Source: Pseudomonadota bacterium (GTDB lineage Bacteria; Chloroflexota; Ktedonobacteria; Ktedonobacterales; JACDGC01). Taken from it: 33,289 nt of DNA. The notes beneath the pieces are model-generated. The model was not told the origin of the DNA. It saw only the letters and a list, made by a program, of their open reading frames with translations, and did no database searches. The position numbers and the translations under genes were made by a program. Positions 2 through 32,261 of this stretch are shown one piece after another (positions within the stretch are counted from its first letter, which is position 1; each line of letters begins with the position of its first letter). Location of the stretch: positions 1 to 33,289 of the forward strand of contig JAJPKG010000422.1 in assembly GCA_021323815.1 (NCBI GenBank), given 5' to 3'.

Positions 2-502
2 GCCGCGCCGACCGCCGGCCTGCATTTCACGCCGGAGTTGATCGCGCGCCTGGCCACGCAGGGCATCCCGATGGCACACGTGACGCTGCACGTCGGGCTG
101 GATACGTTTCGCCCGGTCGAGGTGACGGATCTGCGCGAGCACCACATGCACAGCGAGGCCATCGCGCTCAGCCAATCTACGGCGGATGCTGTCAACGCCA
201 CGCGGGCAGCCGGCGGGCGCGTGGTGGCGGTCGGGACCACGACGGTACGCACGCTGGAAAGCGTGGCCCAGCAGGGGATGCCGCTCAAACCCTATGCGGG
301 CCGCACGTCGCTTTTCATCACCCCCGGCTTTCGCTTCCAGGTGACGGACGCGCTCATCACGAATTTTCACCTGCCCAAAAGCACCCTCCTGGCGATGATC
401 AGCGCCTTCGCGGGCCGTGAGCGCGTTCTGGCGGCATATCAGACTGCGATTGACCAGAGATATCGCTTTTACAGTTTTGGCGACGCCATGCTCATTCTGT
501 GA
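2..502 (+). CDS. queA: S-adenosylmethionine:tRNA ribosyltransferase-isomerase QueA, C-terminal part (5' end lies outside the window)
   Basis: The frame is open from the window edge. The translation contains GRVVAVGTTTVRTLES and ITNFHLPKSTLLAMISAFAG...YRFYSFGDAMLIL, which are characteristic C-terminal QueA blocks. Stop TGA at 500-502. Confidence 0.9.
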   Translation, partial: AAPTAGLHFTPELIARLATQGIPMAHVTLHVGLDTFRPVEVTDLREHHMHSEAIALSQSTADAVNATRAAGGRVVAVGTTTVRTLESVAQQGMPLKPYAGRTSLFITPGFRFQVTDALITNFHLPKSTLLAMISAFAGRERVLAAYQTAIDQRYRFYSFGDAMLIL

Positions 503-1604
503 GGTCTGAGGGGATATCATTCGGCAGCGCTGCCCGTGCCACAGCACGCCAATCACCATCCGGCGCGCGCAGCCATGCGATGATCGCACCCTCGCGCACG
601 CCGTTCGCGCTGACGCGCAGTTCCGTCGCACCGACGCGCTGCATGATGGCCTGCCACGCCGCCACGCCGCCGGCAATGATGCGCACGCGCTCGGCATCCA
701 CGCCGCTTTGCGCGGCCAGAACCGACGCGGGTGCGCTCAGCAAAATGTCACGGGCGCGGTCAAGATCCGCTGTCGCGAGGATATCACCGGCACCCAGGAA
801 ACGCGCCAGAGATGTCGCCGTGCCGCCGACCGCGATCAGCGCGTCCAGCGGGGGATCCGGTGGGGTGAGGGCTTGCACACGCTCCCCTGCGGCAGCCAGC
901 ATGGCGGCGAACTGCTCTGCCGTCGGCGGGTCTGCCGGCTGCACGAGATCCACCAAACGACCTGAGCCGAGGGGCAAAGAGGTTGCATATGCGATCTTCT
1001 GTGTTGTCCCTACAACGAACTCGCAACTTCCCCCGCCGAGGTCGCCCACGCCCAGGCGCGGCAAGCTTTTCTCCCCAGCCCTCCCATCAGAAGACGCTGT
1101 ATCTTGCCCACCACCACTGGTGCGCCCCGCGATCTTGCCTCCTGGCAGCCCGGAAGGGTTGGCATTTTCGAGCTGGGGGGTTTCAGCCCCCGGCGGTCCG
1201 CCGGAGAAAGAGGCGGTTGCCCCCCAAAACGTCAGCACGGCCTCTTCCAGGCCGGTGATGAGCGCGATTTCCCCGCCCCAGGCGGCGCTGAAGCGCGCGA
1301 GCATCGCTTGGGCATTGCGGGCGGCGCGCACACCCTCGGTTGCCAGGCCCAGCCGCGCCTCGGCTCCCAGTTGTGCGGCGCGTTCGGCCATCGCGCGCAG
1401 CGTCGCTTCCACCCGCGCGGCGCGCTGCTCGCCGATCTCCCCCGTTGCCGCCACATCCGCGCCCAGACGAGCGAGATCCACTTGCCGGCCAACCACTGTG
1501 AGATCGCTCACACCGTTGCTATCAACGATCACCAGATGCACCGTGTTGCTGCCGATATCCACCGCCGCCACGCGCCGTTTCACCTGATTCGCCGTGCTAT
1601 TCAT
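492..1604 (-). CDS. Ppx/GppA-family phosphatase carrying a repeat-derived internal insertion
   Basis: AAVDIGSNTVHLVIVD and VGDLGGGSCEFV match the ASKHA phosphate-binding motifs of Ppx/GppA. ATG 1604 is preferred as start (GAGGAA 6 nt upstream) over ATG 1628. The 3' end overlaps queA by 11 bp (convergent). A low-complexity stretch of about 50 aa (GGPPGAETPQLENANPSGLPGG...) is encoded by a REP-like element. Confidence 0.8.
   Translation of the reverse strand: MNSTANQVKRRVAAVDIGSNTVHLVIVDSNGVSDLTVVGRQVDLARLGADVAATGEIGEQRAARVEATLRAMAERAAQLGAEARLGLATEGVRAARNAQAMLARFSAAWGGEIALITGLEEAVLTFWGATASFSGGPPGAETPQLENANPSGLPGGKIAGRTSGGGQDTASSDGRAGEKSLPRLGVGDLGGGSCEFVVGTTQKIAYATSLPLGSGRLVDLVQPADPPTAEQFAAMLAAAGERVQALTPPDPPLDALIAVGGTATSLARFLGAGDILATADLDRARDILLSAPASVLAAQSGVDAERVRIIAGGVAAWQAIMQRVGATELRVSANGVREGAIIAWLRAPDGDWRAVARAALPNDIPSDLTE
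1146..1195 (+). repeat. REP-A double-hairpin element, copy 1 (inside the ppx/gppA-like CDS)
   Basis: CAGCCCGGAAGGGTTGGCATTTTCGAGCTGGGGGGTTTCAGCCCCCGGCG fits the family pattern CAGCCC-N4-GGGYT-N5-TTTCGAGCCGGGG-N6-CCCCGGCG, which is seen at 8 other sites in the window. Confidence 0.8.
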
Positions 1605-1702
1605 GCTGGTTTCCTCGTCTTTCTCCATAACAGCCTATTGCACGGATCAGCCGCAACGCAAGAGCGCCGGGTTCGGAGGGCAGGGCGAGCGTAGAAAGAG
1701 AC

Positions 1703-1836
1703 GGGGCAACCACAAGGCATCGCCCCTGCACACCACATGGCAAGATGAGCCGATAGAAGGCAGGCGAGGAATGCCATTGCCCCTACGGGCTAACGCACCA
1801 CTGGATTCCGCTAGGGGCAATCCCGTGTGGTTGCCC
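1703..1836. repeat. REP-B cluster of GTAGGGGC-type palindromic units
   Basis: Inverted pair GGGGCAACCACAAGGCATCGCCCC (1703-1726) and GGGGCAATCCCGTGTGGTTGCCC (1814-1836). The internal unit GGCGAGGAATGCCATTGCCCCTAC (1763-1786) is the reverse complement of GTAGGGGCAATGGCATTCCTCGCC, which is nearly identical to 23546-23569. Confidence 0.7.
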
Positions 1837-9446: not shown

Positions 9447-9485
9447 CCGTCACGACACGCTTCGTCCCTTCTTGCCAGATACGAT

Positions 9486-9545
9486 CGCCGGGAGTTCAAC
9501 CTCCCGGCTCGGAACAGAAACCCCGCTTGGCTGTAAGCGGGTTTA
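9486..9545 (-). repeat. REP-A double-hairpin element, copy 2 (between convergent genes)
   Basis: CGCCGGGAGTTCAACCTCCCGGCTCGGAACAGAAACCCCGCTTGGCTG is nearly collinear with 23711-23759. Its second hairpin, CCCGCTT-GGCTGT-AAGCGGG followed by TTTA, can act as a terminator for the 8202-9446 gene. Confidence 0.75.
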
Positions 9546-11326: not shown

Positions 11327-11373
11327 CCGCGAAAGGGGTTCTTTCCCGCGCCAGGGGGTTTAGCCTCTGGCGG
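11327..11373 (+). repeat. REP-A double-hairpin element, copy 3
   Basis: GCCGCGAAAGGGGTTCTTTCCCGCGCCAGGGGGTTTAGCCTCTGGCGG aligns with the reverse complement of 26050-26101 (AGGGGTTCGCGTTTCCGCGCCGGGAGCTAAACCTCCCAGCGCGG). Confidence 0.65.
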
Positions 11374-18783: not shown

Positions 18784-18838
18784 GAAGCGGCAGGCGATGT
18801 CGCTTGCAAAAACAGGTCGGATACTGCATGCACCGCCT

Positions 18839-18884
18839 GCCGGGGGCTGAAGCCACCCGGCTCGAAAAAGATGCCCTCCGGGCG
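18839..18884 (-). repeat. REP-A double-hairpin element, copy 4 (between convergent genes)
   Basis: GCCGGGGGCTGAAGCCACCCGGCTCGAAAAAGATGCCCTCCGGGCG is the reverse-orientation match to the family pattern. Confidence 0.8.
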
Positions 18885-18935
18885 ATATCCGGCGTTCATG
18901 CGAAAGCACCATAAACCGCTGACGCCTCCGTTTCT

Positions 18936-23569: not shown

Positions 23570-23710
23570 GCCGTGCCATAGGTGATGTGGGGTCCAATGG
23601 CAAAGGCAATCGCCCGGCTCACCGTGCCAAACGCGAGATGATCGCCGGGCGAGGCAGCCGGGGGGATAAATGCAGTTGTACACAATAGCGCGGACACCGC
23701 ATGGCATGCA

Positions 23711-23759
23711 CGCCGGGGGCTGAACCCCCCGGCTCGGAAAGACCAACCCCACCGGGCTG
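23711..23759 (-). repeat. REP-A double-hairpin element, copy 5
   Basis: CGCCGGGGGCTGAACCCCCCGGCTCGGAAAGACCAACCCCACCGGGCTG, reverse orientation of the family pattern. Confidence 0.8.
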
Positions 23760-23844
23760 TCCGGGGGACGTGGGAAACATCATCAATCCCCTGCCGGGTG
23801 TGCAGGGCGTTCTCGCCGCCAGCGCATGCGTCCTGCGCGCCCTT

Positions 23845-26049: not shown

Positions 26050-26101
26050 CCGCGCTGGGAGGTTTAGCTCCCGGCGCGGAAACGCGAACCCCTCTGGGCT
26101 G
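26050..26101 (-). repeat. REP-A double-hairpin element, copy 6
   Basis: CCGCGCTGGGAGGTTTAGCTCCCGGCGCGGAAACGCGAACCCCTCTGGGCTG, starting 17 nt after the kinase stop. Confidence 0.75.
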
Positions 26102-26156
26102 TGATGGACGGTGATCGCGTTGAATGAGCGTGATTGCCGGGCACGAGGTTGGGCGC

Positions 26157-26266: not shown

Positions 26267-26320
26267 TGTCCAATCCCACGCCACACCACCAACCTTGCCA
26301 CGCGCGATTATCTTCTACTT

Positions 26321-26370
26321 CAGCCCAGGCGGGCTTTCTTTTTCGAGCCGGGCGGCTTTAGCCCCCGGCG
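26321..26370 (+). repeat. REP-A double-hairpin element, copy 7
   Basis: CAGCCCAGGCGGGCTTTCTTTTTCGAGCCGGGCGGCTTTAGCCCCCGGCG. Confidence 0.8.
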
Positions 26371-26427
26371 ACCTCGCCATTCATGAACCTTCTTTCGCCC
26401 GATTTTCTTCTCTTTCTCATCTTCCCC

Positions 26428-28152: not shown

Positions 28153-28494
28153 AAATTGCGTTCTCTGGAAGAATAGGAGTGAGGAGTGTGATCATGCCGA
28201 ACACGCACAGGGCAGCCTGAGCGGATGCTCACCCAGCCCTGTGAAACTTCGGCCTTGTCACGCTCCGCCAGCGGTTGTTCGTTGTTCAAGATTCCTTGTG
28301 TGAAGAGGTGTCGCCCCATGAAGTATCAGATGATTCATCGCGGAAGTTGCGTGCGCCAGCGGTTGCAGCGGGTTCGCCCGCTGGCGGGAACCTGCCCCTT
28401 AGTGCAGGGCAAGCATCGATCCATCGTCCGGCGGCACCGCGTGCAAAGCAAAGTAGGATCACATCACCAACCCACGTGTGAGCGTGCCTGACCA

Positions 28495-28544
28495 CAGCCC
28501 GAATGGGCTTTGTCTTTCGAGCCGGGGAATAGAATTCCCCGGCG
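28495..28544 (+). repeat. REP-A double-hairpin element, copy 8
   Basis: CAGCCCGAATGGGCTTTGTCTTTCGAGCCGGGGAATAGAATTCCCCGGCG. Confidence 0.8.
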
Positions 28545-28616
28545 AGCTTCGCTGGCAACGGCCCTGCTCTGCGGAACCAGCAGTAACGATTCTCCCCGAT
28601 GAGAGGAGGTGGCTGA

Positions 28617-31611: not shown

Positions 31612-31647
31612 TGAGCAATCAATAGCGAGGTGATCGCCAGGTGAGAT

Positions 31648-31694
31648 CGCCGGGGGTTAAATCCCCCGGCTCGTAAAAAAAGCCCCGATGGGCT
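31648..31694 (-). repeat. REP-A double-hairpin element, copy 9 (likely bidirectional terminator)
   Basis: CGCCGGGGGTTAAATCCCCCGGCTCGTAAAAAAAGCCCCGATGGGCT. Two hairpins flank an A7 tract (T7 on the other strand). Confidence 0.8.
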
Positions 31695-32261
31695 ATATCA
31701 ACGGACTATTCTTTGGCGATCGCTTCCTTTTCGTTGTGCTGGCGGGCGGTTGTTCCGGGGGATGACGATGGCCCACCTCTGAACGCTGCCGGTACGCTTT
31801 GTCGCAGGCATGAATGCTGCCGCTATGCCCCTCGCCCTCATCCTGCGAATTGGTGACGCCGTGCTAGCGGTTGTCTTTGTGTTTCTTTGTTCCTCCTGAC
31901 ATGCGCTTCCTCCTGAATAAGAGATTTCTTTCATGAACGCGCATACCCTATGCCGTCTCTTCGCAACGAGCATGGAGTGGGAAGCCTTACTCACAACTAC
32001 GCCACAATGTGGGGTACTCAGGAGCTTGCTTATCCAGGTCCTATATCCAGTGATGGATATAGCTTCGATAACTACTGGCGCGCATCGAATTAGCGGCTAA
32101 ATGCTAATGGCTCATATACTGGATCACATTTCTGAATAAGTTTGGAGCCAGTATATGATTTGGCACATAAAGCGAGTTCCTTCATGGAACAAAATTGCTC
32201 TTGCTAACGTCATGAACCGTAACCCTCAGGTTTTGCTGTCAAGGAACTTCAGGAGGCAGAT

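Follow-up and report, generated by a model that had tools for sequence, protein, structure and literature searches.

In-frame copy of a dispersed two-hairpin repeat in the interdomain loop of a Ppx/GppA-family gene from a soil Ktedonobacterium

A complete copy of a dispersed repeat, here called REP-A, lies within the Ppx/GppA-family gene of the window, by which is meant the whole 33,289-nucleotide stretch that was analysed. The reading frame is uninterrupted over its full length in the ORF list, insert included, and the orthologues in 30 of 30 related genomes lack the insert. Most probably it is a selfish or neutral repeat insertion that was tolerated in a permissive interdomain loop of ppx. 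The features on which this reading is based are collected in Table 1. The genome carrying the insert is referred to as G000 and the genome of the same genus as G001.

Table 1. Positions in the window of the Ppx/GppA-family gene, its insert and the repeats.
Feature	Position	Strand	Evidence
Ppx/GppA-family exopolyphosphatase gene	492..1628	-	ORF list, 378 aa; PF02541; 480 homologues; AlphaFold2 model
DLGGGS phosphate-2 motif, D196-S201, intact, first strand of domain II	1026..1043	-	invariant in A1 and A3; model strand 192-197
Lineage-specific loop, residues 139-189 and P190	1062..1214	-	orthologue protein and DNA alignments; split matches in 30 relatives; pLDDT
Insert block 2, 33 nt = 11 codons (SSDGRAGEKSL)	1062..1094	-	absent from orthologues
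Probable remnant of ancestral loop, ..GGGQDTA, aligned to NQRDPA / MDDTP of relatives	1095..1115	-	alignments, weak here
Insert block 1, 99 nt = 33 codons (ASFSGGPPGAETPQLENANPSGLPGGKIAGRTS), whole REP-A unit inside	1116..1214	-	MAFFT against G001
REP-A extended match, antisense to ppx	1123..1207	+	blastn against more than 20 genomic copies; 138-copy information-content profile
REP-A conserved core, 51 nt = 17 codons	1146..1196	+	repeat grouping; nhmmer E 2.7e-11
Hairpin 1, AGCCC-GGAA-GGGTT, one G.T pair on (+), then T-rich run	1147..1160	+	read from sequence; stem kept in 50 aligned copies
Hairpin 2, GCTGGGGGG-TTTCA-GCCCCCGGC	1172..1194	+	50-copy consensus structure, 8 bp
DIGSNT phosphate-1 motif, D24-T29, intact	1542..1559	-	invariant columns
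Two inverted GTAG-tagged repeat copies, spacer upstream of ppx	1705-1726 (+), 1814-1835 (-)		repeat grouping; same family as the P0002 loop insert
Degenerate REP-A copy, below nhmmer threshold	11327-11373	+	
Further REP-A copies	9482-9536 (-), 18835-18889 (-), 23707-23763 (-), 26051-26106 (-), 28491-28548 (+), 31644-31696 (-)		nhmmer
Best REP-A copy of the window	26317..26373	+	nhmmer

The gene product was matched by the Pfam family Ppx-GppA with an E value of 1.2e-29 and 104 bits (cut-off 27). The match covers both domains and falls into two stretches that are split at the insert, near residues 140 and 196. Met9 is probably the true start, as judged from the homologues, giving a protein of 370 aa; the 14 close homologues of alignment A1 (49-80% identity to the query) are 310-338 aa in length. 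Residues D24, G26, S27, N28, T29, E128, E129, D196, G198-G200, S201, E203 and G268-G269 are invariant in alignments A1 and A3 and T270 is nearly so. The phosphate-1 (DxGSN), catalytic Glu (EEA), phosphate-2 (DxGGGS.E) and GGT motifs are thus all retained, their roles being presumed from the established knowledge of the E. coli and Aquifex PPX. A second Ppx/GppA paralogue is encoded on another contig (G000:C81) and the relatives also have one. Scanning metagenomes for nearer relatives or for empty-site alleles gave one distant homologue and nothing else. Some Ktedonobacteria homologues have 360-386 aa; their extra length was found to be due to N-terminal extensions and another loop, not to the insert site.

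Between FWGAT and RLGVGDLGGGS there are 52 aa in this protein versus 8 aa in the 14 close homologues. The net gain is therefore 44 aa (132 nt), smaller than the ∼51-70 aa originally proposed, although the peptide quoted with that proposal is exactly residues ∼143-193 of the ORF product. The peptide TSGGGQDTASSDGR is one example spanning the insert. Alignment of the DNA with the G001 orthologue using MAFFT resolved the extra 132 nt into a 99-nt block, a 21-22-nt stretch that may be ancestral and a 33-nt block. Both blocks are multiples of three and neither contains a stop codon. The intervening stretch is probably a leftover of the ancestral loop; its alignment is weak and one of its residues, D176, is nearly invariant in A1. 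As the alignment is uncertain in this region of low similarity, we only infer the two-block picture. The 99-nt block is about the size of one full REP-A unit, given that in other, tandem arrays REP-A recurs every 93 nt (contig C227) or 101 nt (contig C100).

The segment had been predicted to be derived from the repeat. This holds for positions 1123-1207, a longer span than the 50-nt core, while the 33 nt of the second block are not explained by it. Neither this genome nor any of four relatives was found to contain a counterpart of these 33 nt. When the genome and four relatives were searched with positions 1050-1128, using blastn-short and relaxed blastn, only matches of 13-23 nt at chance level were obtained, so that derivation from some other recognisable repeat is unsupported. 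The 33-nt block would be an indel that is older or has nothing to do with the repeat. Within the first block, the extended match is bordered by ACTGGTG and AAGAGGC, 7 nt each, which are not repeats. No target-site duplication was seen at the element ends, which are approximate.

The genome is a metagenome-assembled genome (MAG) in 494 contigs and 88% complete, repeats commonly disturb short-read assemblies and the exact protein is known from one contig only. A repeat-induced mis-join or a collapsed bubble could therefore be suspected of having created the insert. However, the sequences on the two sides of the insert are halves of a single gene in the correct order, orientation and frame, and besides the repeat the insert holds 33-50 nt of unique sequence. 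These two observations make an assembly artefact unlikely. Analogous in-frame inserts also occur on many contigs, one of them in a second, independently assembled genome. An artefact has the smallest probability of all the explanations considered here.

The frame had been predicted to remain open through a complete REP-A unit, and this was confirmed by the ORF list, by repeat grouping and by the profile search, at a level far beyond chance. Repeat grouping placed positions 1146-1195 with 26321-26370 and 28495-28544 and, inverted, with 18839-18868. The extended match takes in CGCGATC, ∼18 nt 5' of hairpin 1, and a GGCGG.C.GCC tail. Of the nine copies originally counted in the window, eight seed the nhmmer profile; the ninth exists but is degenerate and falls below threshold. 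The possibility had been raised that the nucleotide similarity between copies would vanish in a proper alignment. It did not, and the profile search upholds it. Using this profile with a cut-off of E<=0.01, 232 copies were found in the 3.88 Mb genome and the ppx copy ranks eighth among them. It scores near the top of the family and has diverged little from the consensus, which suggests that it is young. In the mRNA sense of ppx the element is read as its reverse complement, in which hairpin 2 has a C.A mismatch and no U-run follows; hence there is no obvious intragenic terminator. Single-sequence RNA folding of REP-A was no more stable than shuffled controls for either strand (z = 0.5 and -0.06).

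The family consensus reads YAGCCC-GGAG-GGGTT, TCTTTTCCGA, GCCGGGRGG-TTTAG-CYCCCGGC, GGGCGTGCC. In 50 aligned copies the stem of hairpin 2 is 8 bp long and one of its pairs covaries, being GC in 26 copies and AU in 19; hairpin 1 is short and frequently has a G.T pair on the forward strand. Hairpin 1 is preceded by the tag YAG, mostly CAG or TAG. GTAG occurs in few of these 50 copies and neither GTAG nor CGTC is a conserved end tetranucleotide. A strict hairpin-2 pattern matched 100 times in G000, 35 times in G001 and 0-1 times in each of 59 other genomes of the order, reversed-pattern controls giving 0-1 matches. Judged by this distribution, REP-A is a young family confined to the genus among the 61 genomes searched. 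A scan of the whole window against Rfam at gathering thresholds returned zero families, so REP-A is not a curated RNA family.

Most copies are located outside long coding ORFs and often just 3' of genes. Although hairpin 1 with its T-run resembles a terminator, a terminator role was rejected because there is no co-orientation bias 3' of stop codons: 32 copies have the same orientation as the gene, 52 the opposite and 37 are ambiguous, the ORF caller being crude and over-predicting genes. Also counted against such a role was the sense orientation of 13 of the 22 copies inside genes. The profile of 138 copies shows no terminal inverted repeats. GTAGGGGC occurs no more often than expected from base composition. 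Genes for Y1 transposases (PF01797) are present on contigs C422 (E 1e-38) and C491 (with two TAG stops); no flanking of such RAYT genes by REP-A and no mobilising enzyme for REP-A was found on the short contigs of this fragmented MAG. Mobilisation by a RAYT is not adopted here.

A homologous segment at the same place in orthologues would have spoken against an insertion. It is absent: all 30 related genomes, G001 included, gave two-piece alignments with breaks at query residues ∼140 and ∼190. In G001 the two aligned pieces are separated by 15 nt (∼5 aa). By comparison with G001, the insertion would either postdate the split from this congener or have been lost there.

AlphaFold2 was run with a 15-sequence alignment and gave a model with pLDDT 85.9 and pTM 0.83. 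The pLDDT is above 90 on either side of the insert and falls below 50 at residues 144-180 only, between helix 126-138 at the end of domain I and strand 192-197 at the start of domain II. The model has the two-domain actin-like (ASKHA) fold. The top Foldseek matches were 1T6C, 1T6D and 2J4R with target-normalised TM scores of 0.79-0.86, the first in rank being the Aquifex aeolicus Ppx/GppA 1T6C at 0.85. Sequence alignment to 2J4R/1T6C placed the insert between residues 123 and 136 of Aquifex PPX/GPPA. In terms of the model the insert is probably a disordered interdomain surface loop. Most likely, folding and activity of the enzyme are preserved, and the protein is presumably both made and active. 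The loop preceding the phosphate-2 strand of Ppx/GppA would on this evidence tolerate at least 44 extra residues.

Pairwise dN/dS was 0.22 against the closest homologue, P0002, which comes from a soil metagenome contig and has 80% identity over the alignment, and 0.18 against G001. The dN to G001 is about equal for G000 (0.195) and P0002 (0.187). At the level of sequence these values show purifying selection over the whole divergence with no obvious acceleration, a time span within which recent selection following the insertion cannot be dated. Because the REP-A copy is young, the intact frame alone does not prove selection since the insertion.

The following course of events would account for these results. 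REP-A would be a non-coding, genus-specific dispersed unit of ∼95-100 nt with two hairpins, a copy of which may have integrated into ppx/gppA after the lineage split from the sequenced congener. Its landing site would have been the short loop joining the last helix of domain I to the DLGGGS strand of domain II. The insertion would have survived because 99 nt is a whole number of codons and the frame used has no stop. With this filter passed, REP-A would be translated within a 52-residue, probably disordered, surface loop. The repeat would have no function for the protein, being selfish or neutral DNA that selection keeps at permissive sites only.

The same permissive-site filter would explain other in-frame copies found in linkers, loops and inteins. 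Copies were taken as intragenic if the frame stayed open through them, if 90 or more codons lay to the left and to the right and if both flanks had a coding GC3/GC2 signature. This gave 22 further REP-A copies within long ORFs, at least 13 of them, in 11 recognisable genes, lying within a Pfam domain match or between two domains. CheA has two copies, in the Hpt-P2 and P2-dimerisation linkers, and MutL has one in the interdomain linker. Copies are located inside GlutR_N of HemA (glutamyl-tRNA reductase), inside AIRS_C of an AIR-synthase-related protein and inside FAD_binding_5 of a CO-dehydrogenase-type flavoprotein. In-frame copies were also found in an amidohydrolase, a GH38 mannosidase, a DUF2298 membrane protein (two tandem copies), a chlorite-dismutase-like/Rieske fusion and the inteins of GyrA and a UvrD helicase. 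Some of these host genes are normally indispensable. Copies lie in either orientation and in five of the six reading frames, as predicted by a filter that demands only a multiple of three and no stop codon. Roughly 6-10% of REP-A copies are intragenic. The original prediction regarded in-frame repeat insertions as uncommon, which is not the case in this genome, and precedents have been published for the palindromic elements of Rickettsia and for intragenic REPs.

Among the host genes compared, the insert is missing in relatives for three and is shared with the congener, partly decayed, for one. The AIRS insert (+37 aa) is present in this genome only. The HemA insert (+42 aa) is found in G000 only; close to that position the congener carries another, larger one. 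The congener shares the flavoprotein insert, which is strongly diverged there and missing in the next genus, indicating long-term retention and decay of repeat segments into anonymous loop sequence.

These genes bear on the question of whether ppx was inactivated. The gene could be a very recent pseudogene in which the frame has not yet decayed, with polyphosphate/(p)ppGpp turnover carried out by the paralogue. The insert lies at the junction of domains I and II directly before the phosphate-2 strand, adjoining the catalytic cleft and the interdomain hinge, and 44 additional residues could impair domain closure. The closeness of the copy to the family consensus suggests a recent event and the second paralogue could make ppx dispensable. 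Against this, both insert blocks are stop-free multiples of three, every active-site motif is conserved and there is no excess of amino-acid change on the G000 branch. Moreover, REP-A is tolerated in frame in HemA, MutL, CheA, the AIR-synthase-related enzyme and others, and one such insert is old enough for two species to share it. Inactivation is thus unlikely. The original prediction had left the choice between a tolerated surface loop and an inactivated gene, and the intact frame and motifs, the loop in the AlphaFold2 model, dN/dS of ∼0.2 and the in-frame copies in about a dozen other genes all favour the tolerated loop.

The same loop of ppx contains a different repeat in P0002. There, 22 residues lie between FWGATA and PRLGVGDLGGGS, including GNHKGLPLQ encoded by CAGGGCAACCACAAGGGATTGCCCCTACAG. 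A 22-mer of this loop is found exactly in six places in G000 and in six in G001 and, allowing up to two mismatches, 21 times in G000 and 16 times in G001 versus 0-1 times in 39 other genomes. On the opposite strand the 22-mer is a GTAG-tagged stem-loop of the classical REP type and belongs to a second, GTAG-type family (CTGTAGGGGCAATCCC..GCCC). Given that two unrelated repeat families occupy the ppx loop in two lineages and that the G001 site is empty, the in-frame insertions are independent.

Such a recurrence could mean that the loop has been co-opted under positive selection, for example as a flexible segment that serves regulation or interaction close to the active-site cleft, and loop length does vary among the Ktedonobacteria homologues. 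However, the two inserts are unrelated in sequence, both come from non-coding repeats, and the insert studied here is missing from the congener and all other relatives. It is also predicted to be disordered and has no conserved residues, and a purely permissive site explains the recurrence equally well. Co-option is therefore very unlikely and tolerance of a neutral or selfish insert remains the preferred reading.

In-frame ‘selfish’ repeats are a textbook oddity of Rickettsia that has been documented sporadically elsewhere. What characterises the Rickettsia palindromic elements, RPEs (Ogata et al. 2000 Science 290:347; 2002 Genome Res 12:808, as summarised in PMC10969869 and PMC3733652), is their in-frame presence within functional genes. 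According to these summaries RPEs are ∼100-150 bp long and in three of ten R. conorii families nearly half are intragenic. As far as the summaries describe them, RPEs and REP-A are alike in being short, dispersed and hairpin-forming, in occurring in intergenic regions as well as in frame within housekeeping genes of unrelated kinds, in adding a translated peptide that is apparently compatible with fold and function, and in having several families coexisting in one genus. For REP-A, in-frame insertion in unrelated functional genes at fold-compatible sites was found in Ppx and in the 13 copies of the 11 genes above. The hosts differ, a free-living soil Ktedonobacterium (Chloroflexota) with a genome of ∼4-5 Mb as opposed to an obligate intracellular alphaproteobacterium. 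REP-A also has a shorter conserved part (∼55-85 nt, within its full unit) than the summarised RPE length and a lower intragenic share than the three R. conorii families. Since five frames are used, there is no single conserved ‘RPE peptide’ for REP-A.

REPs with GTAG or CGTC tags, including intragenic ones, have been described (Di Nocera et al. 2013, PMC3733652), and Chloroflexi are among the bacteria for which GTAG REPs are reported (PMC3733652). REP-A likewise consists of short, GC-rich, imperfectly palindromic stem-loops that are present in many copies, for the most part outside genes and often directly 3' of them, with G.T pairs in the stem that suggest transcription of the element. In both, a minority of copies is wholly inside ORFs of known proteins, repair genes included. 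However, REP-A has two hairpins and a T-rich spacer where a REP is a single palindrome of 20-40 nt, and its 5' tag is YAG instead of GTAG or CGTC. The second family of this genome does fit the GTAG REP type. As REP-A fails the test of the GTAG/CGTC tag and its likeness to RPEs is taken from descriptions of the latter, it is best regarded as an analogue of RPEs and REPs and a member of neither.

MITEs with in-frame fusions include ERIC, Correia/NEMIS and QMITE1/2 of Coxiella (PMC5896051, PMC10969869), and MITE-ORF fusions and intragenic REPs have been reported in several free-living species (PMC3733652, PMC5896051, PMC10969869). REP-A shares with MITEs the nature of a small non-autonomous repeat that is occasionally inserted in an ORF, where amino acids are added or replaced. 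Unlike for MITEs, no terminal inverted repeats, target-site duplication or parent IS were identified for REP-A, the ends of which are approximate. Reported MITE-ORF overlaps are mostly at gene ends whereas those of REP-A are internal. A full-text literature search found no paper joining Ktedonobacteria with repetitive or transposable elements.

The behaviour known from Rickettsia would thus occur in free-living soil Chloroflexota by means of an undescribed, genus-restricted, two-hairpin repeat found within twelve or more recognisable genes. Of greater interest in this result are the pattern across the genome and the fact that the ppx loop was hit twice. The REP-A set may serve as a natural map of insertion-tolerant loops and linkers, as in Ppx/GppA, HemA, MutL, CheA and the inteins, and the pair of a young and an old insertion may reveal the way in which a peptide encoded by a repeat decays into normal loop sequence. 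In annotation, genes with in-frame repeats should not be called pseudogenes by default, and repeat-derived segments may mislead the assignment of domain boundaries and homology searches.

The ppx loop was hit by REP-A here and by the GTAG repeat in P0002, and HemA carries different inserts in the two congeners. It is conceivable, though doubtful, that several young repeat families (REP-A, the GTAG-type REP and others) systematically colonise coding sequences and hit the same loops independently in sister lineages. If the recurrence were to reflect a target preference beyond the selective filter, REP-A would integrate site-selectively and in this way make new disordered loops and linkers. The candidate target would be CGCGATC, to be taken as a lead and not as evidence. 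This motif is found 5' of most REP-A copies and also in the empty ppx site of the relatives.

REP-A copies were found in frame within the inteins of two host proteins, GyrA and a UvrD-type helicase, from both of which the REP-A peptide would leave the mature protein by splicing. Repeats also occur in tandem, and the array at L005 forms a 31-aa duplication within a DUF2298 membrane protein. The chemotaxis kinase CheA has two flexible interdomain linkers and each of them contains one REP-A copy. A further copy lies in a single open frame, L003, that combines one chlorite-dismutase-like and one Rieske domain with NirD/L-like siroheme decarboxylase domains. Given that this copy is positioned exactly on the first domain junction, the frame may be a gene fusion with REP-A as the bridge.

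Features in the genome carrying the window (G000), a same-genus genome (G001), a soil metagenome contig and the window
Feature	Location	Detail
REP-A in GyrA intein	L015 (G000:C26:7141-10203)	in frame
REP-A in UvrD-type helicase intein	L021 (G000:C451:1136-4516)	in frame
Tandem REP-A array	G000:C100:2872-3230	four copies, period 101 nt
Tandem REP-A array	L005 (G000:C227:10951-11097)	two copies in frame, period 93 nt
CheA	L006 (G000:C158:11041-13761)	two in-frame REP-A copies
Chlorite-dismutase-like/Rieske frame	L003 (G000:C73:8407-10971)	855 codons
HemA of congener	L123 (G001:C61:8022-9563)	separate insertion, ~80 aa, close to N-terminus
Repeat in closest Ppx homologue	L001:355-440 (JGI soil metagenome contig Ga0134126_10278251)	non-REP-A, in frame
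Octamer GGCAAGAT	window 1099-1139, minus strand	two copies, spacing 31 nt
Y1 transposase gene (IS200/IS605-type, PF01797)	G000:C422:1125-1475	
Y1 transposase gene (IS200/IS605-type, PF01797)	G000:C491:14428-14772	interrupted by two TAG codons

No flanking REP-A copies were present at either Y1 transposase gene.

Within the insertion in the congener's HemA, VERTFLSAD is duplicated in tandem, and there is also a GAMHRAPT-type segment, which looks like a derivative of a further repeat family. HemA of G000 lacks this insertion and instead carries REP-A, ~40 residues further on.

The closest Ppx homologue carries its repeat in the same interdomain loop as the window gene. This repeat is GTAG-tagged (CAGGGCAACCACAAGGGATTGCCCCTACAG, translated as GNHKGLPLQ) and its family was likewise genus-restricted, among the 41 genomes searched for it. 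In the window, the GGCAAGAT pair is located at the gene-downstream edge of the ppx REP-A copy and could be a local duplication made at insertion, or could have arisen by chance; the ancestral loop of the relatives likewise starts GGCAA.
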